Below are positions 23,368-59,344 of a stretch of 64,000 nucleotides of DNA, in pieces. The stretch lies in contig JAPLYZ010000010.1 of the NCBI GenBank assembly GCA_026395295.1, positions 5,678-69,677 of the forward strand, read 5' to 3'. Position 1 is the stretch's first letter; each line of letters starts with the position of its first letter. Source of the stretch: Candidatus Staskawiczbacteria bacterium. Lineage in GTDB: Bacteria; Patescibacteriota; Minisyncoccia; Minisyncoccales; Staskawiczbacteraceae. The notes under the pieces are model-generated. The model saw only the letters and a program-made list of their open reading frames with translations, was not told the origin of the DNA and made no database searches. A program made the translations under genes and the position numbers.

Positions 23368-23472
23368 CGCTCGGAAAATAATTTTCTGCTAACGCTCGTG
23401 TCCCGCTTCGCGGGAAACTCGCTTCGACAGGCACTTTGTGTCCTGTAATACGTTGAAAATTATTTTCCTCGC
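23368..23472 (-). repeat. MITE-like structured repeat, copy A (dnaK-dnaJ spacer)
   Basis: About 105 bp. It is the reverse complement of copies B and C. A/T-rich inverted termini GGAAAATAATTTTC/GAAAATTATTTTCC and two internal hairpins. Confidence 0.85.
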
Positions 23473-23481
23473 TTTCCTAAA

Positions 23482-24606
23482 ATGGATTACTATGAAGTCT
23501 TGGGAATTACTAAAAGTGCTTCTCAAGAAGAAATAAAAAAAGCATTTCACAAACTGGCGCACAAATATCACCCGGACAAGGGCGGAGATGAAAAGAAGTT
23601 CAAGGAAATCAATGAAGCGTACCAGGTGCTTTCAGATAGCGCAAAAAGAGCTCAATACGACCAGTATGGGCGTGTATTCGATGGCAATGAAGGATTTTCC
23701 GCCCAAGGCGGACCAGCCTCGGGCTGGAATTGGGCATGGGGCAACCCTTCAGCAAGCGCAGGACGAGGCGAGGATGGCGTTGAGTTTGATTTTGAAAATG
23801 TTGGAGAGATATTTGAAGAATTTTTTGGCGGGGGATTTGGAGGCGGAGGACGCCGATCAAATAAAAAAGATGCCAGGAAAGGGAAAGATATTCAAGTTGA
23901 TGTAGAAATTGCTTTGGAAAGAACATTAAAAGAGTCAATTGAAAAAATAAGTTTAGCAAAACAAGTTGTATGCCACAGATGCCAGGGAGTTGGAGCAGAA
24001 CCGGGCAGCAAAGTTAAGGAATGTTTTTCTTGCCGAGGAACAGGGCAGGTTCAGCAGGTCAAGAAAACAATTTTTGGTTCGTATACAACTCTGGCAACCT
24101 GCCCGGAATGCAAGGGCGAAGGCACAATTCCTGAAAAGCCATGCAATGTGTGTAAAGGCGAAGGTAGAATAAAAGGCGAAGAAACAATTGAGGTGCATAT
24201 TCCTGCCGGAATTGATACTAATCAGGTTATAAGAGTTGACGGCAAGGGCGAGGCAGGGAAAAAAGGAGCCAAAGCGGGAAATCTTTTTGCCAGAATTTCT
24301 GTTAAACAGCACCCTGTGTTTGAGAGAAGGGGAGACGATTTGTTCAGTCAGTCGGAGATTAGTTTTTCACAGGCAGCTTTGGGAGATGAAATAGAAATTA
24401 AATCATTGGAAGGCACAAACATTTTACTGGAAGTGCCCACAGGAACCGAATCGGGAAAGGTTTTAAGAATTTCGGGAAAAGGAATTCCGCATTTTGGAGG
24501 ATTTGGAAAAGGAAACCTGTACATTGAGTTGAAAATTAAAACACCAAAAAAATTATCCAAGCGCCAGAAAGAACTATTGGACCAGCTTCATCAAGAAGGT
24601 CTGTAG
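23482..24606 (+). CDS. dnaJ: Co-chaperone DnaJ
   Basis: J domain with HPD (KYHPDKGG), G/F region, four CxxCxGxG zinc-finger repeats. Confidence 0.95.
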
Positions 24607-24612
24607 AAACGC

Positions 24613-24685
24613 GCCCTTGTAGCTCAATTGGTAGAGCAGTTCCCTTTTAAGGAATTGGTTTCGAGTTCGAGTCTCGACAAGGGCA
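24613..24685 (+). tRNA. tRNA-Lys (anticodon UUU)
   Basis: Hand-folded cloverleaf: GCCCTTG/CAAGGGC acceptor, GCTC/GAGC D stem, anticodon loop CTTTTAA, TCGAG-TTCGAGT-CTCGA T arm. 73 nt, no encoded CCA. Confidence 0.9.
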
Positions 24686-24693
24686 CATTAACT

Positions 24694-24720
24694 AAAAATC
24701 CGCCAATCTGGCGGATTTTT
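24694..24720. terminator. Bidirectional terminator between tRNA-Lys and the LAGLIDADG gene
   Basis: AAAAATCCGCC-aatct-GGCGGATTTTT. Confidence 0.8.
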
Positions 24721-24725
24721 AGTTA

Positions 24726-25220
24726 CTATTTGGTTTTTGAGAAGGCCTTTGCCATTTCTAACCATTTTGGCGCTCGGGGGCGGTTTTTATATTTTGCTGA
24801 AGACTTGTGAATTTCTATTAAAGTGCACAGGTCATTTTTTTTCCAACTGGCTAAAGACTTTCCCTTATTTCTTTGGATTACCTCAACTCCTTTTGCCCAA
24901 AGTTCAAAATCTTTTTTCTTTTTGTCAGCCAGCAAATTTTTTCTGAAAAACGGCACAACCACTTCGGCAATATCGCTAATTTTTTGCACAGAGAATCTTG
25001 CCTGATCTTTGGAAACGGTAATTTCTCCGCAATCCATTTCGTTTTTTATTTTTTCCAAAATTTTAAAATCGTTTTTGGGCGAGGTAACCACAAACTGAGC
25101 TTTCCAACGGTAGTAAGTGGGGGAGTTGGTTCTTTCGTGCCGGGTGTCTTTTCTAAATTGCAAATCAAAGCAACCATCGGAATTTACTAGGTTTACTATA
25201 TTAAATTTTTCTGTTACCAT
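24726..25220 (-). CDS. Free-standing LAGLIDADG-type homing endonuclease-like protein
   Basis: 164 aa. One LAGLIDADG-like motif (NLVNSDGCF) and family-like core (ILEKIKNEMDCGEI, VVPFFRKNLLADKKKKDFELW). Confidence 0.55.
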   Translation of the reverse strand: MVTEKFNIVNLVNSDGCFDLQFRKDTRHERTNSPTYYRWKAQFVVTSPKNDFKILEKIKNEMDCGEITVSKDQARFSVQKISDIAEVVVPFFRKNLLADKKKKDFELWAKGVEVIQRNKGKSLASWKKNDLCTLIEIHKSSAKYKNRPRAPKWLEMAKAFSKTK

Positions 25221-25271
25221 AACTTTATAAAATTAGTTTTTAATTTATAGATTGATTATAGCAGATATTTA

Positions 25272-25282
25272 ATTGTGCGACA
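25272..25282 (+). repeat. ATTGTGCGACA 11-mer, copy 3
   Basis: Exact copy ending 5 nt upstream of the helicase ATG. Confidence 0.95.
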
Positions 25283-25287
25283 ACACC

Positions 25288-26601
25288 ATGAAACAAAAGG
25301 AAGCATTAGATATTCTAAAAATGGGTTACAATACTTTTTTGACAGGCCCGCCGGGAAGCGGAAAAACTTTTTTATTAAATAAATATATTGAATATCTTAG
25401 AAAAAATAATATTCCCGTTTCAATTACCGCCAGCACCGGCATTGCCGCTACCCATATGGGCGGGGTTACATTGCATTCGTGGTCTGGCCTGGGAATCAGA
25501 GAAAAGTTAGATGACTTGGAAGTAAGGCAAGTTTGCGACAAGGGATATTTAAGAAAAAGAATAAAAAACACGGGCGTTTTAATTATAGACGAGATTTCCA
25601 TGATTAAAGCTTCACAGTTTGAGGCTGTAAGCAAAATTTGCCAGTATATAAAAAGAAATATCCGACCCTTTGGCGGAATACAAGTTATTTGCTCGGGCGA
25701 TTTTTTCCAGCTGCCACCGGTGGAAAAAGAAGGCAGGGAAATAAAATTTGTTACCGAGTCAGACGTTTGGAAGCAAATGGAAATGAAAATTTGTTATTTA
25801 GACGAACAGCATAGAACAAAAGATAAAAAACTGCATAAAATTTTAAATTGCATTCGCGAAAGCAAAGCAGGGGAATCAAAAGAACTTTTGTATCAAGCGC
25901 AAAAAGTGGCAAAAGATTTAAAACGTGTTTTTACAAAACTTTACACTCACAACGTTGATGTGGACAGCATTAACTATTCTGAGCTGAACAAAATAAAAGG
26001 AAAAGAATATTATTATCAAATGGGGCTGAGAGGAAATCTTGTTGTCGCAGAGGCGTTGAAAAAAAGTTGCTTGGCGCCCGAGAAGCTAATTTTAAAAGAC
26101 GGCGCGCACGTGATGTTTATTAAAAACAATTTTGACGCAGGATATGTTAACGGAACGCAGGGGAAGATAGTTGGTTTTGGGGCGGGGGATTTGCCTATTG
26201 TCAAAACTCAAGACGGTAAAAAAATAACCGTAGCTTATGCCGACTGGACAATAGAAGAGGAAAATTTAATAGTGGCCGGAATTTCTCAAATTCCGCTAAG
26301 GTTGGCATGGGCCATTACCGTGCATAAATCACAAGGAATGAACCTTGATTCGGCCGAAATGGATCTTTCGAGATGTTTTTTAGAAGGCATGGGGTATGTT
26401 GCGCTTTCCAGATTAAGGTCATTAAAGGGTTTGCGACTGATGGGAATAAACAACCTGGCTTTTTGTGTGAATCCTCGGGCGCTGAAAATAGATAAACAAT
26501 TCAGGCTTTTTTCCAAAGAAGCCTCAGCTGAACTAAAAAAGACGCCGGCGGGCGCTGTAACCAAAAGGCAAAAACTTTTTATTAAATATTTAGGCGGCTA
26601 G
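25288..26601 (+). CDS. Pif1/RecD-family ATP-dependent DNA helicase
   Basis: Walker A GPPGSGKTF, Walker B LIIDEISM, GDFFQLPPV, AITVHKSQG, YVALSR. Start at ATG 25288. Confidence 0.85.
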   Translation: MKQKEALDILKMGYNTFLTGPPGSGKTFLLNKYIEYLRKNNIPVSITASTGIAATHMGGVTLHSWSGLGIREKLDDLEVRQVCDKGYLRKRIKNTGVLIIDEISMIKASQFEAVSKICQYIKRNIRPFGGIQVICSGDFFQLPPVEKEGREIKFVTESDVWKQMEMKICYLDEQHRTKDKKLHKILNCIRESKAGESKELLYQAQKVAKDLKRVFTKLYTHNVDVDSINYSELNKIKGKEYYYQMGLRGNLVVAEALKKSCLAPEKLILKDGAHVMFIKNNFDAGYVNGTQGKIVGFGAGDLPIVKTQDGKKITVAYADWTIEEENLIVAGISQIPLRLAWAITVHKSQGMNLDSAEMDLSRCFLEGMGYVALSRLRSLKGLRLMGINNLAFCVNPRALKIDKQFRLFSKEASAELKKTPAGAVTKRQKLFIKYLGG

Positions 26602-26616
26602 CCGTAAGGAGTTTTT

Positions 26617-26627
26617 ATTGTGCGACA
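26617..26627 (+). repeat. ATTGTGCGACA 11-mer, copy 4
   Basis: Exact copy in the 31-nt spacer between the convergent helicase and xer genes. Followed by GACAAG-N9-CTTGTC. Confidence 0.95.
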
Positions 26628-26632
26628 AGGTA

Positions 26633-27604
26633 TTATTTCTTGTCAGGATCAGAGTGGAATTGATGGTGAATGTCGCGAAGGCGTTTATTGGTTACGTGCG
26701 TGTAGATTTGAGTGGTGGCAATGTTGCTGTGGCCCAAAAACTCTTGGATGCTTCGCAGATCAACTCCCTGGTTTAACAAATCTGTGGCGTAACTGTGGCG
26801 CAGGGTATGAGGTGTTGTAAAAATTGGCACGCCTGAAAGCAGGGCGTATTTTTTTACCGTGCGCTCAATAGACCTTGGGGTAAGCCTGGCATTGGTATCG
26901 TCTTTTTTGTCGCGAAAGTTTATAAACAAGGCTTTTTGATTTGCATGTTTAATATCGTTTCTTATTTCTAAATATTTTTTGATGAAGTTTAATGCGCGTT
27001 CGGAAAAATAAACTACTCGCGGTTTTCCGCCTTTTCCAATTACGCCAAGTTCCATGTCCTTTTTATCTTTTAGATTACTAAATTGTTCAAGGTTCAACGA
27101 GGTGAGCTCAGCAATTCTAAACCCGGTTGAGAAAAAAACCTCTAAAATAGCCCTGTCGCGAGTGCTTATGTCGTCCTTGGGCTCAATGGAGGCTAAAAGC
27201 TTGCTAATTTGGTCTAAAGTAAGGAATTTAATGCTTTTTGAGCCTCTATCTGGCTTTGAGAGCGATATTTTGTCCGGGGGGATACTTTGTATGTCTTTTG
27301 CCACAAAATAGCCTAAAAAGGCCCTTAAAGCGATCAAATAGTAGTTTTGGGTGGCCTTAGATAGCAATTTTCCTGTAGCCAGACTGGGCTGTCTTGAAAG
27401 GTATAATCTATAGTCCCAAATATGCTCGGAGGTCAACTGATGGGGGAGTAAAGACGATAATTTAGCTTGGTCTAACCAATAGAAAAATTTCTGCAGATAA
27501 TTTTTATAATTCTCCTGAGTATTTTTTCTTAAACCTTTTTCAACTTCACAAAAGTCTAAAAAATCTTGCAGATGGTTTTTAATTGGTTTAGTTGAGTTTT
27601 GCAT
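26633..27604 (-). CDS. Tyrosine recombinase, XerC/XerD-like
   Basis: 323 aa. SAM-like N-domain. Catalytic region RDRAILEVFFSTGFRIAEL, HTLRHSYATDLL, LGHSNIATTQIYTHV. Confidence 0.85.
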   Translation of the reverse strand: MQNSTKPIKNHLQDFLDFCEVEKGLRKNTQENYKNYLQKFFYWLDQAKLSSLLPHQLTSEHIWDYRLYLSRQPSLATGKLLSKATQNYYLIALRAFLGYFVAKDIQSIPPDKISLSKPDRGSKSIKFLTLDQISKLLASIEPKDDISTRDRAILEVFFSTGFRIAELTSLNLEQFSNLKDKKDMELGVIGKGGKPRVVYFSERALNFIKKYLEIRNDIKHANQKALFINFRDKKDDTNARLTPRSIERTVKKYALLSGVPIFTTPHTLRHSYATDLLNQGVDLRSIQEFLGHSNIATTQIYTHVTNKRLRDIHHQFHSDPDKK

Positions 27605-27626
27605 TTTCTCCGGATTTTTAGAAGCC

Positions 27627-27674
27627 TATACTTAGTACGTCGCTTTACCTACATTTTGCGACATAGTCTGTATA
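27627..27674. promoter_or_regulatory. Large imperfect inverted repeat in the xer leader (candidate recombinase site or operator)
   Basis: Arms TATACTTAGTACGTCGC and GCGACATAGTCTGTATA, 13/17 complementary, 14-nt spacer. Overlaps the 1-mismatch motif copy ATTTTGCGACA (27653-27663). Confidence 0.4.
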
Positions 27675-27677
27675 CTA

Positions 27678-27707
27678 ATAATAGTCCACCCCTTATGCCC
27701 ATGTCAA
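27678..27707 (-). promoter_or_regulatory. Sigma-70-type promoter of the xer-like gene
   Basis: On the minus strand: TTGACA (27707-27702), 18 nt, TATTAT (27683-27678). Confidence 0.55.
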
Positions 27708-31931: not shown

Positions 31932-33057
31932 AGGTGTTTTTGGAGATGTTGAGCAATAATCCTACGCCGATGAGTTCAACTGCCAAGTGCGAACCGCCGT
32001 AAGAAAAAAATGGCAAAGGAATTCCGGCTAATGGAAAAATTCCTGCCACCGAAGATATGTTTATAAACGCCTGCAATGTTATGTAAAAAACAATTCCCAC
32101 AGCTGTTAATTTGGAAAATCTGTCGTTTGAGTTTTTGGCGATTTGAAGTCCAAGCCAAAAAAGTAATATAAAAGCGGCAATTAAAAGAACGCATCCGAAA
32201 GCCCCTGTTTCTTCGCCAATAATGGCGAAAATAGAGTCTGTCATTGCCTGAGGCAAAAAACCAAATTTTTGAGCTGACATTCCCAAGCCCTTTCCAAAAA
32301 TTCCTCCAGAGCCCAAGGAAATCAGTGATTGCCTTAATTGAAATCCTTTTCCCAGAGGGTCTATGTCGGGGTGCAAAAAAATCAGCCAGCGATCCAGCCT
32401 ATACGGTTCAAATTTTACAAGAAGCAAAAGAATGGTTGCCCCGGAAAACACAACCAGCAAGGTGTGCCACAACGGAGTTCTGGCGGAAAAATATAAAACA
32501 AGCAAGGTGATGGCGATAATTCCCAACGTGCTGGCGTCTTTTTGGAAATATAATGCCACGGCAACCAACCCCAAAAAAATTATAAACGGAAGAAAAATGT
32601 ATACAATATTATGGTAACCTCTTTTTGTGATAGATTTCCAGTCCGATACATTGGCTTCAGATAACTTAGAAGCTATCCAAGCGGATAAATATAAAATGGC
32701 TGTAATTTTCAAAAACTCCGAAGGTTGAGCCGTAAATCCCCCTATGTTAATCCACCTGCTTGCTCCGCCCGCCCTAGAGCCTACACCAGGCAAAAATACC
32801 AGAAATAAAGCTGCAATGTTCAAAAGAACAAGCGCTGGCGCCCATTTTTTTAAAAAATGCAACGAAATTTTATATGCCCCAAACCCTAAAACAAGCGCCG
32901 GTAGGAGCCCAAAAATTAGCTGATGAAATAAATAGTAGTTTGTATTGCCAAACCTTTGCAAAGAAGCCGGCGCCGAAAGACACGCCAAAAATAAAAAACT
33001 GAAACCAATTAAAAAGACGATTAAAAAAAATAATAAATAGTTGAATTGCTTTTTCAT
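31930..33057 (-). CDS. ftsW: SEDS-family peptidoglycan glycosyltransferase FtsW/RodA
   Basis: 375 aa polytopic. LQPSEFLKI-like (AQPSEFLKITAILY), TDSIFAIIGEETG, PLPFFSYGGS. Confidence 0.9.
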   Translation of the reverse strand: MKKQFNYLLFFLIVFLIGFSFLFLACLSAPASLQRFGNTNYYLFHQLIFGLLPALVLGFGAYKISLHFLKKWAPALVLLNIAALFLVFLPGVGSRAGGASRWINIGGFTAQPSEFLKITAILYLSAWIASKLSEANVSDWKSITKRGYHNIVYIFLPFIIFLGLVAVALYFQKDASTLGIIAITLLVLYFSARTPLWHTLLVVFSGATILLLLVKFEPYRLDRWLIFLHPDIDPLGKGFQLRQSLISLGSGGIFGKGLGMSAQKFGFLPQAMTDSIFAIIGEETGAFGCVLLIAAFILLFWLGLQIAKNSNDRFSKLTAVGIVFYITLQAFINISSVAGIFPLAGIPLPFFSYGGSHLAVELIGVGLLLNISKNT

Positions 33058-35648
33058 ATCTTTTCTCCCAAATTTTTAACAGCTTCTTTAAATTTATCTC
33101 CTTTTTCTTCAAAGTCTTTCCAAATTGAATAACTTGGCGAAGCGCAGGAAAGCAAACAAATTTTTCCGGGTGCAGTAAACTTATAAGCAAATTCAACCGC
33201 TTCTTCCATGCTTTCGGTTCTAAGAATATTTAATCCTTTTAATTTTATTTTTTTCCCGCTATCTGGAAAAAGGACGATATTTTTTATTCTATATTTTTTA
33301 ATCGTTTTTTCTAAATTGGAGAAATCATATCCTCTGTCCTTTCCGCCTAAAAAAATTGTATCAATGTTTTTCAGCGACTTTATGGCCTCAATAGTTGATT
33401 CCGGTGTTGTAGAGATTGCGTCATCATAAAATTTAACACCCTTGAACTCGCCCACAAATTCCAATCTATGGGGCAAGGTTTTAAAATTCTCAATAGCCTT
33501 CTTTATTTTATTATCAGGCACGCTAAAGTATTTCACAGCAGTAACAGCGGCCCTGATATTTTCTTTGTTATGCTCTCCTAAAAGCAATAAATTTAATCCC
33601 TCAACAAATTTCTCGGTTATAAACGGCATTGGCTTCCCTTTTGATTGAGCTACCCATGCAGCCATTTTCTTATTTTTAGGGTTAAAGATAAAGATGTCCC
33701 CGGCTTGCTGGTGCTTTATTATGTTCTTTTTCGCGTTGTAATAATCTTTCAAACTGCGATGATAATCCATGTGCTCGGGAAAAAGAGATGTTACCACGGC
33801 CACATCAGGAGAAAAATTAATATCATCTAGCTGGTAGCTTGAAAGTTCCAAAACAAAAATAGTATTCTTTTTTATTCCCTTTGTGACAGCTGAAAGCATG
33901 GGCGTGCCGATGTTTCCTAAAAGCTCAACCTTTTTACCTGATTTTTTTAATATGTGATAAATAAGAGAGGCTGTTGTTGATTTGCCTTTTGTGCCGGTAA
34001 CTCCAATAATTTTGACTCCTGGTATTTGCCTGGCATAAGAAAAAAATATATTTGTGGCTGTTGTGTATGGAATTTTAATTTTCTCTTTAGCAACCCCGGG
34101 CGACCTTATGGCTATGTCGTAGTCTTTTTGTTTTTCTAAATAATCGGCGTCTGTTTCCTCGTCGCCAATGCCGATTTTAATGTCAGGAAAATATTTCTCT
34201 AAATATTCTTCTGTTACTTTGCCTTCTTTGCCATACCCCAATATAAATGCGCTATCTGCGCCTAAAAATTTAAGGTAATCTGGCACAGATGAAGGGTGGG
34301 TTTTAAAAACTTCTTTAATTAACTCTAATGGTTTCCTTTGGCCATTAAAATAAATTTCAATGGGCATTTTTTTATAATCAACAAAAAACCTATTGTCATC
34401 AGGATCAATTTTGGGTAAAAATATCTCGCCGGCAAGATCATCTCTAAGCTCTTTTCTGGCCATAAAAAACGCGGCTTTTGCTTCTTGGTAGGTGCCCACG
34501 CAATCAAATGGTTTTGATTTGCCAAAGCCAAGAATATCGCGCAGAGTGATTAATATCTCAGAATCTTGAAACAAATTTCTGCCAAAAATACTTACGAGTT
34601 TTTCTTTCGGCAAAAATGGCGCGAGAATCAAAAAAACAAACACGCATTTTGGACAATGCCCGCACCATAATTTTCCATATGAATCGTCTGAAGAGTTAAT
34701 TTTAAAATTATTGTTGCAGCTGGAAAAAATGTGGAGGTATTTTTCAAGCTTGGCAAACATTTTTGCAACCCTTATTTCATAAAATGGTCTAAGCAAAGAA
34801 AAATAAAGCAAATCGGGGCTTATGGAATTTTTAACATGGTCCTGGAATAAATTTTCAAATTCAGATGATTTTGACCACTGATGATTTATCACCCTTCCCT
34901 TGTATTTTACGTTGCCAAAATTACTGCTAAATTCGTTGGCAACAACAAAATATGAATAATTATAAAAAACCGCGGACATAATTCCCAAAAATGCGTATAT
35001 GCCGGAAATTGGCACATGACCGGAATAATATCCCACTTCCGGGTCAAATATTTTTTTATCCAAGTATCGCCTAATTCTAAAAGACCTCTCCCCCACTTCC
35101 TGAATAACGTTGTCTACCAGCAAAGATTTTTTTTGAGTTTCAACAAACAAAATAGAAAAATCAGTTTTAACTTTTTTAAACAGCTCTGCAGACACAATTG
35201 AATCTTTTCCTCCGCTTACGCCAAGCAAAAATTTGCTATTTCTTTCCAGCCTGTAGTTTTTTGTTTTTGCATCTTTATCAAAAGCAAATCCCGGGAAAAT
35301 AGCCGGATTTAACTTATTTCGGTAGAAAAATTCTCCTAATCCCTTTGTGTAAAAAGAATTCCAAAAATCTGCTTCTTCTCTTGCCAGAGAGTAATTTATC
35401 TTTATTTTTTTAGAGCAATAAAGTTTGTAATAACTGATTCCCAACGCTATATGCAAATCTTGCAGTATCTTTTTGACAAGACCCGAAGGTATTTCTTTTA
35501 GATTAGGGATTTTTGGAAGATTTATTGTTTCTGTAAATAAAATAAAATCCTTGGAGCCAAAGCTCGTTTTGTAATTAAAAAATATCCTTTTCTTTGAGGG
35601 CTCAAATTTGTATGAAGTGAATTCGAAAGTGGTTGGTCTTATTTCCAT
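33054..35648 (-). CDS. murD: Fusion protein: N-terminal PP-loop (SGGxDS) domain + C-terminal UDP-MurNAc-L-Ala--glutamate ligase (MurD)
   Basis: 864 aa. Residues about 1-460 carry LLGVSGGKDSIV and CGHCPKC. Residues about 465-864 are MurD-like (IIGVTGTKGKSTT, LGNIGTP, LEFVGEFKGVKFYDD). Confidence 0.8.
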   Translation of the reverse strand: MEIRPTTFEFTSYKFEPSKKRIFFNYKTSFGSKDFILFTETINLPKIPNLKEIPSGLVKKILQDLHIALGISYYKLYCSKKIKINYSLAREEADFWNSFYTKGLGEFFYRNKLNPAIFPGFAFDKDAKTKNYRLERNSKFLLGVSGGKDSIVSAELFKKVKTDFSILFVETQKKSLLVDNVIQEVGERSFRIRRYLDKKIFDPEVGYYSGHVPISGIYAFLGIMSAVFYNYSYFVVANEFSSNFGNVKYKGRVINHQWSKSSEFENLFQDHVKNSISPDLLYFSLLRPFYEIRVAKMFAKLEKYLHIFSSCNNNFKINSSDDSYGKLWCGHCPKCVFVFLILAPFLPKEKLVSIFGRNLFQDSEILITLRDILGFGKSKPFDCVGTYQEAKAAFFMARKELRDDLAGEIFLPKIDPDDNRFFVDYKKMPIEIYFNGQRKPLELIKEVFKTHPSSVPDYLKFLGADSAFILGYGKEGKVTEEYLEKYFPDIKIGIGDEETDADYLEKQKDYDIAIRSPGVAKEKIKIPYTTATNIFFSYARQIPGVKIIGVTGTKGKSTTASLIYHILKKSGKKVELLGNIGTPMLSAVTKGIKKNTIFVLELSSYQLDDINFSPDVAVVTSLFPEHMDYHRSLKDYYNAKKNIIKHQQAGDIFIFNPKNKKMAAWVAQSKGKPMPFITEKFVEGLNLLLLGEHNKENIRAAVTAVKYFSVPDNKIKKAIENFKTLPHRLEFVGEFKGVKFYDDAISTTPESTIEAIKSLKNIDTIFLGGKDRGYDFSNLEKTIKKYRIKNIVLFPDSGKKIKLKGLNILRTESMEEAVEFAYKFTAPGKICLLSCASPSYSIWKDFEEKGDKFKEAVKNLGEKI

Positions 35649-38975: not shown

Positions 38976-39188
38976 TTAATTAGACATTTGCCGTATTTGG
39001 ATTGGCTCTTTTAATTGATACTTAGCCATAATGTACCCTGAAGCAAAAGCCGCTAAAACTAAAAGCGCGATTATTATAAGTAACATTATATCATTAAAAT
39101 ACAATTTGACAAAGGAAACAATTTTTGCTAAGATATTTTTATAGAAGTCTGAAATCATAAAAATATAAAAAACTAAAAACATGAGCAA
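38976..39188 (-). CDS. Small membrane protein
   Basis: 70 aa with two hydrophobic helices. Weak evidence. Confidence 0.3.
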
Positions 39189-39462
39189 AACAAAACAAGG
39201 AGGTTCGTCCAGATTGGGCAGGGATTCTGCCGCTCAAAGGCTTGGAATTAAAATTTCGGCTGGCGAAAAAGTTAAAGTTGGCATGATCATTATAAGACAG
39301 CGCGGAACAAAATATCTTTTGGGCAAAAACGTTAAAAAGGGTTCTGACGACACTATTTACGCCATGAAAGATGGTTTGGTGAAATTTTCCTCAAAATCCA
39401 AGAAAATTTTCAATGGATCACGGAGAATCGCCAAAGTTGTTTCAGTCGAGAAAGCCAAATAA
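39181..39462 (+). CDS. rpmA: 50S ribosomal protein L27
   Basis: [32 protein letters not shown]. Confidence 0.9.
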
Positions 39463-41699: not shown

Positions 41700-42920
41700 C
41701 TACTTCAAATCTTTTACTATTTCAAGAGCCTTATCTAATTGTGCATCCTTTTGGGGTTGCACAAGAGCATCTTGGTCTGTTATATCAACTTTTACGTCCG
41801 GAGTCAACCCTACATCTGAAATTGAATTTCCCTTGGGCGTTAGCCAGTTGGCGACAGTTATTTTAAGAAACGATCCTCCACGCAAGTCTAATACTTGTTG
41901 AACACAACCCTTGCCAAAAGATTTTGTGCCAACTAATTTTATGTTCCTGTTGTCGCGAAGCGCGCCGGCTAAAATTTCCGATGCCGATGCTGACCCCTGA
42001 TTTATCAAAATAACCATTGGATAACTCGCAAAAGCCGAACTGCCTTCTGTTTTGTATGTTTGCTGAGGTTTTGCATTGCCGAAATCTTCAATGGCAACTG
42101 GTTGTCCTTTTTGTAAAAACCAGCCGGCAACATCCTGCGCTGCCGAAAGGTATCCTCCCGGATTATCTCTTAAATCTAATACAATTCTTTTTGCCGGACT
42201 TTGCAAGATTTCGAAGGCAGCTTTTTTAAAATCAGCTGTAAGCGGTCCGTCGAACTGATAAATTTGTATATATGCCGTGTCGCCATCTTTCCCGCCGGCT
42301 TCGCCTGGCGAGGCGAGAAGCGACCATTCTATTGAAGGAACTTTTATTGTGTCTCTTATAATTTTTATATCCTTTGCCGTCTCCCATCCATCTCTGAAAA
42401 TATTCAAAGTTACCGTTGTCCCTCTTGGTCCGCGAATTAAGCTAACCGCCTCATCGGTGGCGAGGTTAGTGGCATCTTGCCCATTAATTTTTAAGATTAT
42501 GTCTCCTGATTTTAGCCCTGCCTTTTGTCCTGGAGTGCCCTTTAGCGGCGCTATGACAGTTAACAAATCTTTTTTAATGCCAACTTCCACTCCGATTCCA
42601 TCAAAGGAGCCGTTCAAATCTTGCTGAAACCTTTTTGCCTGCTCAGGGTCAAAAAAATTAGTATAAGGATCGCCCAGCGACCTTGTCATGCCATCTATTG
42701 CTCCGTAAATTATTTTTTGCTCGTCAATTTTTGATGGAGTAATAAAATTTTTCTGCAGCTTATTGTAAGCATCCCAAAAAAGTGAAAAATCAATAGTGCC
42801 TGGCTGAGGAACGTGATAAGCAATTTTATTTACACCCACCCAAGCTCCCAAGCAAAAAATACCGGCGAAAGCTATAACCAGAACAGCAGACCAAATTACT
42901 TTTTTATAACTCTTATTCAT
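41700..42920 (-). CDS. S41-family carboxy-terminal processing peptidase
   Basis: 406 aa. N-terminal TM, PDZ (GLKSGDIILKING), DLRDNPGG, GSASASEILAGAL, TKSFGKG. Confidence 0.9.
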   Translation of the reverse strand: MNKSYKKVIWSAVLVIAFAGIFCLGAWVGVNKIAYHVPQPGTIDFSLFWDAYNKLQKNFITPSKIDEQKIIYGAIDGMTRSLGDPYTNFFDPEQAKRFQQDLNGSFDGIGVEVGIKKDLLTVIAPLKGTPGQKAGLKSGDIILKINGQDATNLATDEAVSLIRGPRGTTVTLNIFRDGWETAKDIKIIRDTIKVPSIEWSLLASPGEAGGKDGDTAYIQIYQFDGPLTADFKKAAFEILQSPAKRIVLDLRDNPGGYLSAAQDVAGWFLQKGQPVAIEDFGNAKPQQTYKTEGSSAFASYPMVILINQGSASASEILAGALRDNRNIKLVGTKSFGKGCVQQVLDLRGGSFLKITVANWLTPKGNSISDVGLTPDVKVDITDQDALVQPQKDAQLDKALEIVKDLK

Positions 42921-48745: not shown

Positions 48746-50005
48746 CTATTCGTACCGCAAGGCTTCAATGGGGTCTAGCTTTGCCGCAGACCTTGCCGGC
48801 ATAACTCCGAAAGATATTCCAATGGCAGCTGAAACCCCAACCGCAATTATAATAGAATACAACGGCACTGAAAAAATCCATGCCAGCCCGTTATAACTTG
48901 CTATTAAAGAAACCAACCAGCTCATAACAGAACCCAAGATAATTCCAAGTATTCCGCCCAAGACTGTAACCAAAATTGATTCCACCAAAAATTCTCTTGA
49001 AATATCAGAACTTCTTGCGCCCAACGCTTTTTTTAGGCCAATCTCAGCTGTCCTCTCGGTAACAACCACATACATAATATTCATTATGCCAACTCCACCC
49101 ACAATAAGCGAAATTGACGCAATGGCAATCAACAAAATGGTAATGCCATTAAAAATTGTGTTGAAGGTTTCCAAAGCTTGCGCTTGAGTGGTTACCATAA
49201 AATCATCTTTATTTGGGTTTGTAATGCTGTGGAGACTTCTCATGGTACTGCGGATTAATTCTGCTGTGGCGTCGCCCAGGTTTGTGTCTTTCAACTGCAC
49301 AACGCCGATGGTTATATAATTGACTCCCAGCATTTTTTTCTGAGCCGTGACAAGTGGCATATATAAACTGTCGTCAGCCCCTCCTGCGGAAAAAGATCCT
49401 TGCGCATTATAAACCCCTATAACCTGGAAATTTAAATTTCCAACTCTTATCAACTTCCCCACTGGCTCATCCTGCCCGAATAAGTCGTTGGCTAAATTGC
49501 TTCCCAAAATTGCCACCTGGACTGCCCCGGCATCTTCTGTCTGCGTAAAAAATCTGCCTTTTTTCAAGGTGTGTTTATCAATAGAAAACATATCAGCTCC
49601 AACTCCAAAATAAATAGAGTTTTTAGCGTTATTCCTGTAATTTACCACCGAAAGACCGGTAACCATGCCATAGGCTCCGGAAACATTATTTAATTTTTTG
49701 AGCGCAGTCAGGTCGGATAATTTGAATGTTGTAATCTGCACAGTAGAAGCCGCCCTGCTAAGGTCGGCTGATGCCGGGTTGTTATTGGCTAAATTCTTTG
49801 TTGTAGGAGGAACTTTTGTTTCCACAAAAAGGGTGTCTGTTCCCCACGCCGCCAGTTCGGCGTCTATCAAGCTTCTAAAACCTGCGCCGGCGGACAAAAC
49901 CGTAATCACTGTTGCAATTCCAATGACAATTCCCAGAGTCGTTAAAACCGTCCTTATAGGGTTGGACTTTAACGCTCTTATCGATTGCTGAAAAGAATTA
50001 ACCAT
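48746..50005 (-). CDS. ABC transporter permease (MacB/FtsX type), subunit 2
   Basis: 419 aa, same architecture as 7263-8495. GGVGIMNIMYVVVTERTAEIGLKKALGA, C-terminal DPIEALRYE. Confidence 0.9.
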   Translation of the reverse strand: MVNSFQQSIRALKSNPIRTVLTTLGIVIGIATVITVLSAGAGFRSLIDAELAAWGTDTLFVETKVPPTTKNLANNNPASADLSRAASTVQITTFKLSDLTALKKLNNVSGAYGMVTGLSVVNYRNNAKNSIYFGVGADMFSIDKHTLKKGRFFTQTEDAGAVQVAILGSNLANDLFGQDEPVGKLIRVGNLNFQVIGVYNAQGSFSAGGADDSLYMPLVTAQKKMLGVNYITIGVVQLKDTNLGDATAELIRSTMRSLHSITNPNKDDFMVTTQAQALETFNTIFNGITILLIAIASISLIVGGVGIMNIMYVVVTERTAEIGLKKALGARSSDISREFLVESILVTVLGGILGIILGSVMSWLVSLIASYNGLAWIFSVPLYSIIIAVGVSAAIGISFGVMPARSAAKLDPIEALRYE

Positions 50006-50015
50006 GATTTTATAA

Positions 50016-51287
50016 CTATTCGTAGCGAAGCGCGTCGATTGGGTTTAATTTTGACGCTTTTAAGGCCGGGTACAGGCCAAAAATAACGCCTGTTAAAATT
50101 GATACGCCAACAGCCAACAGAACAGAGGTTATAGAAACTACGAATGCCCAGTCATATCCCAAATAACGCATCAACAGGGTTATAAGATAAGAAATTAAAA
50201 TTCCCACAATAATTCCGACAATTCCGCCCAGAAAAGTCAGAGTCCCGGCTTCCAGCAAAAATTGCTTCATAATTGCCACATTGCTGGCTCCGACCGCTTT
50301 TCTTAAACCAATTTCTCTGGTGCGCTCAGCCACTGTTGCCAACATAATATTCAAAATTCCGATTCCCCCAACCACCAAGGCAATCGCGGCCATGGCAGTT
50401 AAAAATAATCTTAAAGCATCGGTTATTGTGCTTAAAATGCTGATTGCGTCGGCAATATTTCTTACCGTATAATCAGCGTCAACATCTTTTTGGATACGGT
50501 GGCGTTGATTTATTACATTTTTTACATCGGCAATTGTCTGATCTATGTTGTTTGACGAATCTACCTTTATGTCTATTCCACGCAAATAATGAATTCCAAG
50601 AATTTGTTGTTGGCCAATTGTCAGAGGTAAATAAACTTGGTCATCAAAATCCAAAAAAATAGCGCTGCCCTTTTTTTCCATAACTCCTATAACACGCAAA
50701 GGAATTCCGCCGGCTTGTTCTTGCGAAGCGCTTCTGACTTTTACAACCTGGCCAATGGGGTCAACTCCTGTATTGTTGAATATTTCCGAGGCAACAGTGT
50801 CCCCCAAAATCACAACATTAGCCGCCCCTTCGCCCTGCCTTTGGCTGAAAAATTGTCCGTTTTTTATAGAAGTATTTAAAACATTGGGAAAATTATAATC
50901 TGTGCCAATGAAATTTGTGTCTACTGTTTTGTTTTGCCAGGTCACAGAAACAGACCCCATAACTAAACTCGCCACTGCCTCGGCGTGCGGAACCTGGTTT
51001 TTATTTCTTAGGGCTTCTGCGTCTTCATTGACCAGGGTTGTGATTGTAATTCCAAATGCCTGCGCCGGAGGCCCCTTCTCGTTGCTCTTACCGGGTTGGA
51101 CAGACAAAAGATTAGAACCCAATTTTGTTATTTGCCCCAAAATCATGCTTTGCGCCCCTGCTCCCAAAGCAATTATAGTTATCACTCCGGCAACTCCAAT
51201 AACAATTCCCAGAATAGTCAAAAACGACCTGCCTTTCCTGGCAAGCAATGTCCTAAAAACTAATTTTATGGTTCCCAAAAAATCCAT
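50016..51287 (-). CDS. ABC transporter permease (MacB/FtsX type), subunit 1
   Basis: 423 aa. GGIGILNIMLATVAERTREIGLRKAVGA, C-terminal NPIDALRYE. Confidence 0.9.
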   Translation of the reverse strand: MDFLGTIKLVFRTLLARKGRSFLTILGIVIGVAGVITIIALGAGAQSMILGQITKLGSNLLSVQPGKSNEKGPPAQAFGITITTLVNEDAEALRNKNQVPHAEAVASLVMGSVSVTWQNKTVDTNFIGTDYNFPNVLNTSIKNGQFFSQRQGEGAANVVILGDTVASEIFNNTGVDPIGQVVKVRSASQEQAGGIPLRVIGVMEKKGSAIFLDFDDQVYLPLTIGQQQILGIHYLRGIDIKVDSSNNIDQTIADVKNVINQRHRIQKDVDADYTVRNIADAISILSTITDALRLFLTAMAAIALVVGGIGILNIMLATVAERTREIGLRKAVGASNVAIMKQFLLEAGTLTFLGGIVGIIVGILISYLITLLMRYLGYDWAFVVSITSVLLAVGVSILTGVIFGLYPALKASKLNPIDALRYE

Positions 51288-51290
51288 AAT

Positions 51291-51301
51291 TGTCGCACAA
51301 T
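51291..51301 (-). repeat. ATTGTGCGACA 11-mer, copy 7
   Basis: Exact copy on the minus strand in the 18-nt ATPase-permease spacer, ending 3 nt upstream of the permease ATG. Confidence 0.95.
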
Positions 51302-51305
51302 GGAA

Positions 51306-52022
51306 TTATTTTACCAAATCTTTTTCGGCGCTGGCAATAGTACGTTTTATCACCTTTTCATCGGAAATAATTTGGCCGTCTTTTATGCGGATAATTCTTT
51401 TGGCGTGGTTTGCTGTGTCGGTTTCGTGAGTGACCAAAATAATTGTGTGGCCCTGGTTGTTCAATTTCTGTAAGATATGCATTACTATATTTCCAGATTT
51501 TGAATCCAGGTTTCCGGTTGGCTCGTCGGCAAAAATTACAGCCGGATTGTTAACCAAAGCCCTTGCAATTGCCACGCGCTGTTTTTCTCCTCCGGAAATT
51601 TGGTTTGTAAAATATTCAAGGCGATGCGACATTCCAACCGACTCTAAAGCTTTTTCCGCCAGTTTGTCAAAATCTTTATTTTTACTGTAAACCAACGGCA
51701 ATTTTACATTGTCTAAAACAGTTGTGCGAGCCAGTAAGTTAAAAGATTGAAAGACAAAACCAACTCTTTCGTTTCTTAACTTTGCCAAATAGTCGTCATC
51801 AAAATTTTTTGTGTCTTTTCCTTCAAAGTTATACAAGCCGGAAGTCGGTCGGTCTAAAAAACTTAGAATGTGCATTAAGGTTGATTTGCCAGATCCCGAC
51901 GGTCCCATAATTGCCACAAATTCTCCTTCGTTTATCTTAAACCTGACGCTTCGCAAAACCTGCGTGACAACATCGTCATTAACATAATCTTTTTTTAAAT
52001 TTTCGACTTCAATAAGCGCCAT
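51306..52022 (-). CDS. ABC transporter ATP-binding protein (MacB/LolD type)
   Basis: Walker [10 protein letters not shown], signature [15 protein letters not shown], Walker [12 protein letters not shown]. Confidence 0.95.
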
Positions 52023-52032
52023 GGTTATATTT

Positions 52033-53559
52033 TTATGGTTTAATGTATGTTACAATTTCTTGGCCGTCTTTTAATCCTGAAACAATTTCCACCAACCCTC
52101 CGTCTGCCTGAATTCCAGTTTGAACCTGAACCTCGTGATATATTTTCATTTTTTCATTATCTATAACCCTGACATACTGCTTGTTATTTTTATTTATTAT
52201 TGCGGTTGACGGCACAGCCAGAATGTTATTTTTTTGGGAAATCAGAATTGTCATATTGGCCGTCATACCCGGTTTAATTCCAGGGACATTGTCAAAGCTT
52301 CCCTTAACTAAATAATCAACAACTCCGGAAATTACGGTTGAGGCAGGGTTTATTGTAAGCACTTTTCCGGAAAAATGCTGATCTGGCCCAAGCGCATCAA
52401 AAGTATAATCAATTGACTGGCCTATTTGCAAAGACGCCACGTTGGCCTCGCTGACATCGGCTTCTGTGTGCAAATTTCCAATATCTTGCAAGACAACCGC
52501 AACTTTTGTCGGGGTTGCCTGCTCGCCAACTTTTATATTAACCTGCGTAATTGTCCCGGGCAATGGAGCTGTTATTACTGAATTATTCAAAATAACCTGG
52601 GCCGAATCAACCTGACCTTGAGCAGAAAGCACTTGCGCTCCTGCCAAGTCAATGTCTTCCTGCCTGGGCTTTGCTTTCTTAGCTGACAAATTATCCTTTG
52701 CTGTTTGAAGCGCTACTTTATAAGAAGCAATACTGCTTTGTAAGCTATTAATACTTGTTAGGGCCGCGCTAACCGCGGTTTTTTGTGCGTCTAAAGATGC
52801 CTTATCGGTTACAGAAACTTTGGAATAGTAAATTCCCTGGTCGCACTGGTCTCGTATAATTTGAAGCGAACCAAAAGTAGAATTTAAATCATCTGCTAAA
52901 TTAGAGATTGCCGAGTCGGTGGTGTTAGCATCAGTCGCCCGGCTTACGCTGGATTCTGCGTTTGCCAGCTTATCGTTTATATTATTTTTATTATTCTGAA
53001 CTCTAATGCTTTGCTGATCGCTTGTTGAAAAATTACTATTTTGCACACTCACTACCGAAGCATAGGCATTGTAAACCGCTGTGTAGGCGCTGTTCAAAAC
53101 GCTCTGCGCGCTGTTATATGTGTTGCCCAAATTAACCTCGGCAGATGCCACGGCATTCTGCAAAACTTGTACCTCATTTTGAGTAGGACCATTTATCAGC
53201 TTTTCGTAATTTGCTTTGGCTTGGGCCAATGTTCCTTGTGCCGAAGTTAAAGAAGCAAGCGCAGAAGACTGGTCAAGCGACGCCAAAACTTGTCCCTGTT
53301 TCACGCTGTCCCCTTCAGTAACTAAAACTCTTTTAATAATTCCGCTCCCTTGAAAACTTAAATCAAGATCAGTGGCGCTGACAACCTGCCCTGTAGACAA
53401 AACTGTTTCCTGCAAATTTTGTTTTGTTGCAAACCCGGTTTGTATGGAATTGGCGTTATTTTTTTGGCCGAAAACAAAAAAACCAATTATAATTATAATT
53501 ATCAAAATCGCAATGATCCAGATATTTCTTTTCCTCTTCAAAAATTTTGGTAACTTCAT
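52033..53559 (-). CDS. HlyD/MacA-family adaptor-like protein
   Basis: 508 aa. N-terminal TM, long coiled coil, ITAPLPGTIT, IKPGMTANMTI. Confidence 0.8.
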   Translation of the reverse strand: MKLPKFLKRKRNIWIIAILIIIIIIGFFVFGQKNNANSIQTGFATKQNLQETVLSTGQVVSATDLDLSFQGSGIIKRVLVTEGDSVKQGQVLASLDQSSALASLTSAQGTLAQAKANYEKLINGPTQNEVQVLQNAVASAEVNLGNTYNSAQSVLNSAYTAVYNAYASVVSVQNSNFSTSDQQSIRVQNNKNNINDKLANAESSVSRATDANTTDSAISNLADDLNSTFGSLQIIRDQCDQGIYYSKVSVTDKASLDAQKTAVSAALTSINSLQSSIASYKVALQTAKDNLSAKKAKPRQEDIDLAGAQVLSAQGQVDSAQVILNNSVITAPLPGTITQVNIKVGEQATPTKVAVVLQDIGNLHTEADVSEANVASLQIGQSIDYTFDALGPDQHFSGKVLTINPASTVISGVVDYLVKGSFDNVPGIKPGMTANMTILISQKNNILAVPSTAIINKNNKQYVRVIDNEKMKIYHEVQVQTGIQADGGLVEIVSGLKDGQEIVTYIKP

Positions 53560-53571
53560 AAATTTTTATAA

Positions 53572-53679
53572 GCGAGGAAAATAATTTTTAGCGTATTACA
53601 GGACGCGAAGCGCCTGTCGAAGCGAGTTTCCCCGCCTTGGCGGGGACACGAGCGTTAGCAGAAAATTATTTTCCGAGCG
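53572..53679 (+). repeat. MITE-like structured repeat, copy B
   Basis: About 108 bp, between the HlyD gene start and the PD-(D/E)XK gene stop. Near-identical core CCTGTCGAAGCGAGTTTCCC...ACACGAGCGTTAGCAGAAAAT. Confidence 0.85.
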
Positions 53680-53681
53680 AT

Positions 53682-54371
53682 TTAATTAAATTTTTTAGCT
53701 CCATCTAACCATTTTTTAAATAAGCAATCTTGGCTGTGCTCAGGCGGAGTCGGCTCTCTTAAACATTTGACTGCATCCTGAAAAATTGCGTAAATGTCTG
53801 ACGGGTTGGTTTCTATCTCCACTATTTCTTTGCGAAACGGCAGGCGGTCAATGAATCCCCTGCTCTTGTCTACGATATAAAAAGCCAAATAGCCTTTCCG
53901 CGGAGTTTTATAACCGTTCTTCTCCATTAAAAATGTGTAAGTGTCTAACTGCAACTGGAATCTGTCATAAACATTTGCCGCGGTGCTTCCTGTTGATTTA
54001 TAGTCTAACGGAGCAATTTTAGAATCGCTGAATTCCAAAACATCATCAACCGCGCCAAATAACGTTGCTTGAAGAACCTCGTCAAAATATCTGATGCCGG
54101 CAAGATTGTTTCTCCATTGGTTCAACAACTTCTGATTTGGAAAAAGTCGCGCCTTTATGCCATTTTCTTTCAGCAACGGATGCGGTAAATTCTTCGCCCG
54201 GTAAGTGTCAAACTCTTCTTTTAGCAAACTGTCCACCGCCGAGTTCAAAGCATAAGGGTATGGCGGAGGCCTTTTTATTCCCAAATTCTTATCCAGCCAA
54301 AAGCAATGCGGACATTCCAAAAACAAATTCAGAGAGTTGGGTGATAATTGTATTGGTTTTTCGTTAGCCAT
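53682..54371 (-). CDS. PD-(D/E)XK nuclease superfamily protein (Cas4/RecB-like)
   Basis: 229 aa. N-terminal CPHCFW cysteine pair, D...DYK core (APLDYKS), C-terminal Cys. Confidence 0.55.
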   Translation of the reverse strand: MANEKPIQLSPNSLNLFLECPHCFWLDKNLGIKRPPPYPYALNSAVDSLLKEEFDTYRAKNLPHPLLKENGIKARLFPNQKLLNQWRNNLAGIRYFDEVLQATLFGAVDDVLEFSDSKIAPLDYKSTGSTAANVYDRFQLQLDTYTFLMEKNGYKTPRKGYLAFYIVDKSRGFIDRLPFRKEIVEIETNPSDIYAIFQDAVKCLREPTPPEHSQDCLFKKWLDGAKKFN

Positions 54372-56002: not shown

Positions 56003-56020
56003 CCTGCGTGCCAAAAGCAA

Positions 56021-58419: not shown

Positions 58420-58456
58420 ATTATATATCTTTTTACTCTATCAAAATTTTATCAAT

Positions 58457-58486
58457 AAAAAAAGTTCTGCGACAAAGTCGAAGAAC
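58457..58486 (-). terminator. Terminator after the small G+C-rich ORF
   Basis: On the minus strand: GTTCTTCGA-ctttg-TCGCAGAAC (one mismatch), then TTTTTTT. Confidence 0.55.
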
Positions 58487-58492
58487 ATGGAG

Positions 58493-58762
58493 TCACGGAA
58501 GAAGCGGAGCCGTCCTGAAAATCCTGGGATTGCTAAGATATACAAAGGCGAAAGGAAGCGTCTTTAATTGCGGATTGATTGCGCGAACAATATGGCCCGC
58601 CAGGATGACGCCGGTCATGTCGCCGTCGGGCGCAGCCTCCTTCTCGTCCAGTTGCACCTCCAGACCAACCCCGTTTTCTTCCGGAGCTTCCAGAAGCAAG
58701 GCTTTTGCAACTTCATCAGCCGAAAGTCCGTCGCACGGTACTACTTTTCCGTTAACATTCAT
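58493..58762 (-). CDS. Small G+C-rich orphan ORF
   Basis: 89 aa. Preceded by TTGACA-16-TATAAT, followed by a hairpin plus T-run. No Shine-Dalgarno and no motif, so coding status is uncertain. Confidence 0.3.
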   Translation of the reverse strand: MNVNGKVVPCDGLSADEVAKALLLEAPEENGVGLEVQLDEKEAAPDGDMTGVILAGHIVRAINPQLKTLPFAFVYLSNPRIFRTAPLLP

Positions 58763-58810
58763 AATTTAAAGGAGCTTAGTGTTCTAGAATAATCATTGTG
58801 ATTGCTTATT

Positions 58811-58838
58811 ATTATACTCCCTAAAAAGATAATGTCAA
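58811..58838 (-). promoter_or_regulatory. Sigma-70-type promoter of the small G+C-rich ORF
   Basis: On the minus strand: TTGACA (58838-58833), 16 nt, TATAAT (58816-58811). Confidence 0.55.
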
Positions 58839-58856
58839 CACCTCGAGCGCGCAACC

Positions 58857-58875
58857 AAAAACCCGCTTTCGCGGG
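58857..58875 (-). terminator. Terminator after rplU
   Basis: On the minus strand: CCCGC-gaaa-GCGGG, then TTTTT. Confidence 0.65.
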
Positions 58876-58908
58876 CCGAAGGTCCTGAGTTTTTCGAAGG
58901 ACTTTAAA

Positions 58909-59214
58909 TTACTTTATGCTGATTATTTCTATCTCGGTGTATGGCTGTCTGTGTCCTATCTTTCTGCTCTCTCTTTTCTTCGGTTTATATTTAAAAACAA
59001 TTATTTTATCTCCTTTTCCATGGCTCAAAATTTTCGCCTTAACTTCGGCTTTCACCAATGGAGTTCCAATTTCAACTTTTTTGTCGTTTTCAACCAGCAA
59101 AACATCGGAAAAAGAAATTTCTTCTCCCGCTTTCTTATCTAATTTTTCTACCTTTAATTTGTCCCCGGGTTTAACAATATATTGTTTCCCGCCGGTTTTG
59201 ATTACTGCAATCAT
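58909..59214 (-). CDS. rplU: 50S ribosomal protein L21
   Basis: MIAVIKTGGKQYIVKPGDKLKVEKL. Confidence 0.9.
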   Translation of the reverse strand: MIAVIKTGGKQYIVKPGDKLKVEKLDKKAGEEISFSDVLLVENDKKVEIGTPLVKAEVKAKILSHGKGDKIIVFKYKPKKRESRKIGHRQPYTEIEIISIK

Positions 59215-59229
59215 GTTTTAGAATTAAAA

Positions 59230-59344
59230 GCGAGCCAGTGAATTTTCAGCGTATTACAGGGCACAAAGTGCCTGTCGAAGCGAGTTTCCCGCGAAGCGGG
59301 ACACGAGCGTTAGCAGAAAATTTATTGGCGAGCGATTATAAAGG
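59230..59344 (+). repeat. MITE-like structured repeat, copy C
   Basis: About 115 bp, between rplU and rmuC. Same core, with divergent termini that still pair through G-T wobbles. Confidence 0.85.

Follow-up and report, generated by a model that had tools for sequence, protein, structure and literature searches.

The 64-kb window analysed here, the whole stretch of DNA taken from contig JAPLYZ010000010.1 of a Candidatus Staskawiczbacteria bacterium, carries three copies (A, B and C) of a short structured repeat, each in the spacer between two genes. Copy A (23368–23473, − strand) fills the dnaK–dnaJ spacer, 5 nt past the dnaK stop codon and 8 nt ahead of the dnaJ ATG. Copy B (53571–53679, + strand) lies between a PD-(D/E)XK-family gene (stop 53682–53684) and a HlyD-family gene (ATG 53559) that is part of a MacAB-like cluster, and copy C (59229–59334, + strand) between rmuC (stop 59367–59369) and rplU (ATG 59214). 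Pfam confirms the identity of the neighbours at all three sites. The sole extra sequence in the last spacer is a small A/T hairpin, TAGCAAAAAATTTGCTA, at 59350–59366, between the rmuC stop and copy C. A covariance model of the family (R1) scores the three copies at 118.2, 115.7 and 117.5 bits, respectively.

AGCGAG and CGAGCG mark the limits of the conserved unit in all three copies. Perfect matches to the 18-mer CTGTCGAAGCGAGTTTCC number exactly three in the window, as do those to the 22-mer GACACGAGCGTTAGCAGAAAAT, against shuffle expectations of 0.02 and 0.00, respectively, and chance or assembly artefact is excluded as the origin of the family. There is no fourth copy in the window, as judged by a scan for this frame of bounding motifs and by the covariance model. 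The original prediction, made from the sequence, had placed three copies at these sites; their near-identical core is confirmed by the exact 18- and 22-mers, and copy A is, as was claimed, the reverse complement of B and C, so that all three have the same orientation relative to local transcription. One coordinate requires correction: copy C ends at its CGAGCG boundary, at 59334 and not 59344. The two neighbouring genes are co-directional at each site, and the copies start 2–32 nt past the upstream stop codon and end 8–14 nt ahead of the downstream ATG. The window is very compact, and these are three of its few intergenic gaps longer than 100 nt.

Fold, covariation and strand asymmetry

Each window copy is predicted to fold into an outer stem and two hairpins, with folding z-scores between −4.1 and −5.9 for both strands; the predicted fold of copy C reaches −47.2 kcal/mol on the + strand versus −35.6 kcal/mol on the − strand. 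The common design consists of AGCGAG, one side of a variable 12–15-bp A/T-rich stem, a three-way junction with two small hairpins, the other side of the stem, and CGAGCG. The sequence of the outer stem is free and its pairing is kept, while the junction is near-invariant. In an alignment of 14 full copies (described below), paired cells amounted to 95.6%, compared with 84.1% in column shuffles and 31–49% with slid partners. Changes on both sides were seen in 17 of 36 pairs, and none of 500 shuffles reached any of the observed measures. The majority frequency was 0.97 in junction and internal-loop columns, 18 of 26 of which are invariant, and 0.87 in paired columns, with 29 of 72 invariant. Stems that vary with pairing kept, and junction bases that are the most conserved part, are what would be expected of a nucleic acid that uses both its fold and specific unpaired bases, and not of a palindrome in decay. 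Selection acts on the fold, and the copies constitute a genuine repeat family, as had been proposed. Compensating changes in the arms are found even between copies within one genome, which fits selection on the hairpin better than shared transposase-binding ends.

The outer stem of copy A is formed by 23374–23386 and 23455–23467 (− strand), and its predicted 14-bp perfect outer arm was recovered. In copy B, 53577–53589 pairs with 53661–53673 (+ strand), the final pair being T·G, and in copy C the arm CCAGTGAATTTTC at 59235–59247 pairs with 59316–59328 (+ strand) through, among others, two G·T pairs that exist on the + strand only. Hairpin 1 occupies 23428–23445 in copy A (CAGGACAC-AAA-GTGCCTG on the − strand), 53599–53616 (+) in copy B, where it includes GCGAAGC, and 59257–59274 (+) in copy C. 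Hairpin 2 is enclosed by its own inner AGCGAG/CGAGCG frame: in copy A the hairpin lies at 23401–23415 within 23393–23423 (−); in copy B (53621–53654, +) AGCGAG at 53621–53626 and CGAGCG at 53649–53654 bracket the hairpin at 53629–53646; and in copy C (59279–59309, +) the corresponding positions are 59279–59284, 59304–59309 and 59287–59301. The hairpin variants read as originally described, but only part of the variation in hairpin 1 is compensatory: the change from A to B replaces an A-T pair with G-C, whereas that from A to C is a bulged-base change.

The frame, 5'-(A)GCGAG...CGAGC(G)-3', brackets a helix and can pair as G-C, C-G, G·A, A·G and G-C. It closes both the outer stem and hairpin 2. 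In a subfamily found at three of the fetched loci (L026, L030 and L033; loci are given by L numbers throughout) it is also present within hairpin 2 (CCCGAGGGC...GCCCGAGGG) and atop the outer stem, and an additional outer frame layer is nested around the elements of L026, L029, L030 and L033. In longer, type-2 copies the Watson–Crick pairs flanking the G·A tandem covary (GCGAG/CGAGC becoming GUGAG/CGAAC and AUGAG/CGAAU), while the G·A tandem itself stays. Each full copy contains three to six CGAG and no CTCG.

The two strands are far from equivalent. On the purine-rich, consensus strand, which is the + strand of copies B and C, the hairpin loops hold 81 purines versus 20 pyrimidines (80% purine; GAA, AAA and GCA), whereas on the sense strand the loops are U-rich and the G·A tandems are replaced by destabilising C·U/U·C mismatches. 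The purine strand is predicted to be better folded in 14 of 21 elements, the mean difference being 4.9 kcal/mol with RNA parameters and 0.9 kcal/mol with DNA parameters. The pairing of the diverged copy C arms through G·T alone in the orientation antisense to the flanking genes, put forward earlier as a hint of strand preference, reads as described but does not generalize, since the outer stem shows seven independent G·T and five A·C pairs across the family, and a comparison of G·U with A·C is uninformative as a test of strand. Two other strand-specific features, the tandem G·A frames and the 80% purine hairpin loops, do favour the antisense strand.

Covarying stems combined with junctions more conserved than the stems are the classic signature of a functional RNA. 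The purine-rich antisense strand could encode a small structured or self-processing RNA of a new class, with an invariant three-way junction that would bind a protein or ligand or be catalytic. The restriction of tandem G·A motifs and A-rich/GNA loops to one strand, and the better predicted fold of that strand, would be in keeping with such an RNA, which would be new, there being no Rfam match. We regard it as rather improbable. No conserved promoter- or terminator-like sequence is present outside the frames, the RNA would lie antisense in tightly packed operons with no obvious source of transcription, there is no enrichment of G·U over A·C pairs, and the nesting, site turnover and divergent payloads within the same frame resemble mobile DNA. 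An equally low probability attaches to a related candidate, a functional structured nucleic acid of a new class read antisense to the operons: a small RNA or ribozyme specific to the candidate phyla radiation (CPR), or a single-stranded DNA signal, and not a passive repeat. In it, stacked tandem G·A modules would brace the invariant three-way junction, which would serve as a specific core for protein binding, ligand binding or self-processing.

Several known classes of feature were rejected. Searches of the window and six loci against Rfam families (riboswitches, hammerhead and other ribozymes, small RNAs and leaders) gave only tRNAs at the gathering score, and copy A alone gave nothing relevant at E≤10. 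One reading frame is open through some copies, but changes in the length of hairpin 2 shift it, and a protein-coding role was discarded. An internal promoter was considered on account of TTGAAA/CTGAAA, −35-like, at the sense 3' end; the spacing to −10-like sequences is inconsistent (15–19 nt), and the −10 of copy A would run into the ATG. None of the three elements was called as an intrinsic terminator on either strand: the stem base is A/T-rich, with a mismatched frame, and only two to four T residues follow.

Further copies and spacer turnover

Further copies were sought with a gapped pattern in Joint Genome Institute (JGI) metagenome contigs, with a protein-database search using an open frame that crosses the element, and with R1. 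The gapped pattern yielded eight true copies, and the protein search only two proteins, both of them true copies. With R1, 14 full copies are recognized in the window and the metagenome contigs, together with approximately seven divergent relatives; the existence of more copies, on which the original prediction depended, is therefore established by the search of relatives and the covariance model. The full unit is 104–116 nt in length. A divergent 109-nt copy (L028, 4812–4920) scores 75.7 bits, the type-2 form measures 126–128 nt (L026, 3779–3904; L030, 4661–4786; L040, 7952–8079) and short forms measure 73–76 nt (L032, 744–819; L034, 9914–9989; L043, 9409–9481). The first hairpin of the type-2 form contains the TCCCGCGAAGCGGGA hairpin known from type 1, enclosed between paired GGCAATTTT arms, and alike arms (GCGAGGCAATAAATTTT...) occur in several elements with different payloads. 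This indicates that the family is modular.

The genes beside copies elsewhere are ordinary (fur, sod, ftsZ, groEL and lemA). One full copy (L028, 7807–7911) lies 23 nt upstream of groEL, probably in a groES–groEL spacer, so that a second chaperone operon carries the element. Logan contigs encoding an identical RplU end inside the repeat at copy C, as is expected of De Bruijn contigs that break in a multi-copy sequence. Reads from this organism are present in ERR15302178, ERR15302220 and ERR15302217. An exact 18-mer scan of 185,579 species-representative genomes gave 22 matches, in unrelated phyla and all without the second motif, where approximately 17 would be expected by chance (hand arithmetic), and these were set aside. 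In viral contigs the core pattern had no matches, and the eight matches to the arm pattern, which have neither a partner arm nor a frame, are attributed to chance. Literature searches for dispersed repeats with a structure, or for structured RNA motifs, in genomes of Patescibacteria/CPR brought up nothing comparable.

Every copy is situated in a short spacer, 2–32 nt past a stop codon and 8–23 nt ahead of the next ATG. Both flanking genes run antisense to the purine strand in all 13 scorable full copies and in 18 of the 19 scorable elements of all types (two-sided binomial approximately 8e-5 by hand arithmetic, with the proviso that some loci may be orthologous). The single exception in sense orientation is the type-2 copy in L040.

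Comparison of the dnaK–dnaJ spacer among relatives with 80–84% identical DnaJ reveals considerable turnover. The element is lacking from spacers of 16 nt (L036), 3 nt (L055) and approximately 13 nt (P0006 contig), and removal of GCTCG...CTCGC from the window spacer leaves 15 nt, similar to these empty sites. Framed hairpins with another payload, 76 nt (L034/L035) and 73 nt (L043/L044) in length, occupy the spacer elsewhere, and the spacers of three further loci hold long hairpins of unrelated sequence (L038, 6380–6477; L053, 1985–2063; L056, 1730–1830). The arms of the L053 hairpin are built of TAGGGTA/TAAACCC heptamer repeats. In L040 the spacer contains a type-2 copy and other material: just after that copy, and directly upstream of the intact dnaJ, is a diverged dnaJ pseudo-copy spanning the first ~25 codons (...KKAFHK; 8089–8235), itself interrupted by a ~70-nt palindromic framed mini-hairpin. 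This mini-hairpin within the pseudo-copy is a direct trace of insertion. The dnaK–dnaJ site is thus filled, differently filled or empty among relatives, and the insertion polymorphism that had been looked for is present. Taken over the family, the copies occupy unrelated short spacers between co-directional genes, occupancy of orthologous spacers differs, and the modules are nested.

The recurrence of unrelated long hairpins, or of other framed hairpins, in the same dnaK–dnaJ spacer suggests recurrent selection for any hairpin at this position, and lends indirect support to the originally suggested role in processing, stability or attenuation. The elements could be cis-acting on the sense strand of the mRNA, as intercistronic or 5'-leader hairpins concerned with stability, processing or insulation, and the family would then be kept for a host function, such as setting the relative expression of DnaK and DnaJ or acting upstream of rplU. 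Every copy fills a short spacer and is co-oriented with transcription, one copy lies upstream of groEL, and leaders would matter in a genome from which Shine–Dalgarno sites are mostly absent. In addition, the end of rmuC overlaps a promoter-like site (TTGACT-17 nt-TAAACT, preceded by TG; 59346–59374, − strand); a transcript from it would start at about copy C's edge on the sense strand, with copy C as the 5' leader of the rplU mRNA. This explanation is unlikely overall. A generic hairpin function fails to explain the near-invariant junction bases, and the conserved tandem mismatches would be left unexplained, given the destabilising C·U/U·C mismatches and U-rich loops on the sense strand. A hairpin is not required there, since several relatives have an empty spacer, and the terminator scan called none of the three window copies.

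Orientation, and the proposed mobility and recognition of the folded strand

Gene strand and GC skew switch together at approximately 27 kb in the window, and the directions of transcription and replication are therefore inseparable here. The orientation of the copies correlates equally well with the inferred direction of replication, and this raises a further alternative, in which the element would be a DNA-level site and not a selfish repeat: folded single-stranded DNA would serve as a substrate or landmark for a recombinase, a nuclease, or replication or uptake, in the manner of attC or ssi sites. The window encodes a Xer-like tyrosine recombinase, and mini-hairpins of the GCGAAGC and C-GAA-G kinds are, like tandem sheared G·A pairs, notably stable in DNA. 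This alternative is nevertheless very improbable, as the purine strand would serve as template for the leading strand, a template that is normally not exposed, the strand difference is only 0.9 kcal/mol when folded with DNA parameters, and there are no cassette arrays and no adjacent integrase; the conserved GTTAGCA is also a misfit to the attC core GTTRRRY.

The region in which the switch occurs (24600–27700) looks terminus-like, with gene strand changing from + to − and a peak of cumulative GC skew. It contains tRNA-Lys (24613–24686), a free-standing LAGLIDADG endonuclease open reading frame (ORF; 24726–25220), a PIF1-like helicase (25273–26601) and the Xer-like recombinase (26633–27604), the only candidate recombinase in the window. 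This may be a small island or a dif/terminus region.

The explanation that we favour, tentatively and a little short of even confidence, is that the copies are lineage-specific repeats of Candidatus Staskawiczbacteria: small, non-coding and non-autonomous structured elements, resembling repetitive extragenic palindromes (REPs) or MITEs (miniature transposable elements with inverted repeats), whose folded single strand is recognized in trans. The folded purine-rich strand, together with the junction bases, would be recognized single-stranded by a protein acting in trans, most probably the enzyme responsible for copying or moving the element, by analogy with REP-RAYT, the ends of IS200/IS605 and attC-IntI. 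The strand so recognized would be that whose frames are able to form tandem sheared G·A pairs and whose loops are GAA or AAA. In the operon mRNA the weaker, complementary fold would be a passive hairpin, or perhaps a mildly useful intercistronic one. One-way orientation could arise from strand-specific insertion or from selection against the purine-strand fold in mRNA, such that operon spacers would tolerate the element in one orientation only.

A number of observations weigh against this explanation. There is no target-site duplication, the flanks of the window copies beyond the frames sharing no direct repeat; the sole direct repeat is CGAG within the frames, which recurs around hairpin 2 and in nested layers and is therefore part of the element. 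Neither the 60 Pfam-scanned ORFs of the window nor the called genes of the fetched loci include a transposase, an HUH/Y1 enzyme or a reverse transcriptase. The copy number is modest, with three copies in 64 kb and none in the ~190 kb fetched around the dnaJ genes of relatives, and no two copies are identical, so that there is no sign of recent movement. The wobble pairs of the outer stem show no strand bias. Should genes be read in the direction of replication, the purine strand would be the template of the leading strand; IS200/IS605 elements prefer the opposite, the lagging-strand template. A host function could account equally well for a junction that is invariant across species whose DnaJ proteins are approximately 80% identical. 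Thus, of the earlier proposal of a MITE, the inverted arms, multiple copies and insertion polymorphism stand, but a target-site duplication and, within the window, a transposase or autonomous partner are missing.

The genomes of Patescibacteria/CPR are small and compact and are usually thought to be repeat-poor. The present family offers a clean, testable case, combining a conserved branched fold and junction with strict strand asymmetry and a near-fixed orientation in operon spacers. If a dedicated enzyme recognizes the fold, a previously unknown single-strand mobilization system would exist in CPR bacteria; if the host uses the element, it would be a new intercistronic control device in organisms largely without Shine–Dalgarno sites. 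The repeat also breaks short-read assemblies of these genomes.

Other features of the window may be mentioned briefly. A Shine–Dalgarno-like motif precedes only ~10 of 61 genes, and many genes have a TATAAT/TAGAAT-like box ending 5–7 nt before the ATG (for example, upstream of 53682–54371, 41700–42920 and 33054–35648), which suggests widespread leaderless mRNAs. There are three HlyD-family clusters (4827–8495, 12967–15039 and 48746–53559), two of which include MacAB-like ABC and FtsX genes; the middle one comprises a MarR regulator, two HlyD-family genes and an MFS transporter, in that order. An 831-aa protein (45110–47605) has HerA/DUF87 and type IV secretion system coupling-protein (TrwB/VirD4-like) domains, and is followed by two small ORFs without a Pfam match. 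An 89-aa ORF that follows rplU (58493–58762) is likewise without a Pfam match, and the gene for ribosomal protein L27 lies elsewhere, on the opposite strand (39181–39462), so that the usual rplU–rpmA pairing is broken.

Comparison with known repeat systems

By analogy, the elements may be grouped broadly with REP/REPIN, ERIC, Correia-type and MITE elements. In their behaviour they come closest to REP/REPIN elements and co-transcribed MITEs, but they lack defining traits of both. TIGR arrays consist of tandem units with variable dual spacers beside a Nop-domain Tas gene (PMC12045711). This assignment was rejected: the present copies are single and dispersed, their internal loops are invariant, and no Nop-domain protein was found among the Pfam-scanned ORFs of the window. 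Mycobacterial MIRU are short repeats that lie between one operon gene's stop codon and the next one's start codon, and are oriented according to the operon. The elements described here are similarly packed into operon spacers with orientation tied to operon direction, but MIRU are tandem direct repeats with small overlapping ORFs and not hairpins, whereas the present element has no conserved reading frame.

Integron attC sites are imperfect palindromes of variable sequence in which the fold is kept, the strand is chosen through unpaired or mismatched bases, and the cores are RYYYAAC...GTTRRRY. Maintenance of a fold while sequence varies, and a fixed orientation relative to genes, are common to both. 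In contrast to attC, the element has no RYYYAAC/GTTRRRY cores (the sole conserved GTT stretch being GTTAGCA), is not part of a cassette array, has no integron integrase nearby and is flanked by housekeeping genes (dnaK, dnaJ, rplU, groEL and ftsZ).

Correia/NEMIS, ERIC/IRU, RUP and BOX elements are non-coding units of approximately 100–150 bp with terminal inverted arms, found in operon spacers and able to form a long hairpin in the mRNA. The present family resembles such co-transcribed MITEs in its size, inverted arms, lack of coding capacity, location in operon spacers, and presence or absence between relatives. Arms of 12–15 bp are found in every copy. Unlike MITEs, however, the element has no target-site duplication and its orientation is almost fixed; its interior junction is conserved while the arms vary with compensating changes; and its termini are deliberately non-complementary at two positions (GA versus GA, in the outermost 5 nt, GCGAG versus CGAGC).

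REPs are simple palindromes of 20–40 bp, one end of which carries an unpaired GTAG or CGTC, and their mismatches are required features of a fold that is recognized as single-stranded DNA (PMC3733652). The present unit differs in its length of 104–116 nt, its branched three-way junction, and its AGCGAG/CGAGCG tags, which are located at both ends and internally; neither GTAG nor CGTC is present in the three window copies, no RAYT (HUH Y1) gene was found among the 60 scanned ORFs of the window, and copy density appears to be far lower. The likeness to REP/REPIN elements is nonetheless extensive. Both are dispersed in intergenic regions, mostly between co-directional genes and just past stop codons; both form hairpins whose stems covary, carry a short unpaired tag that is conserved, and lack target-site duplications; and both form genome-specific subfamilies, represented here by that of L026, L030 and L033.

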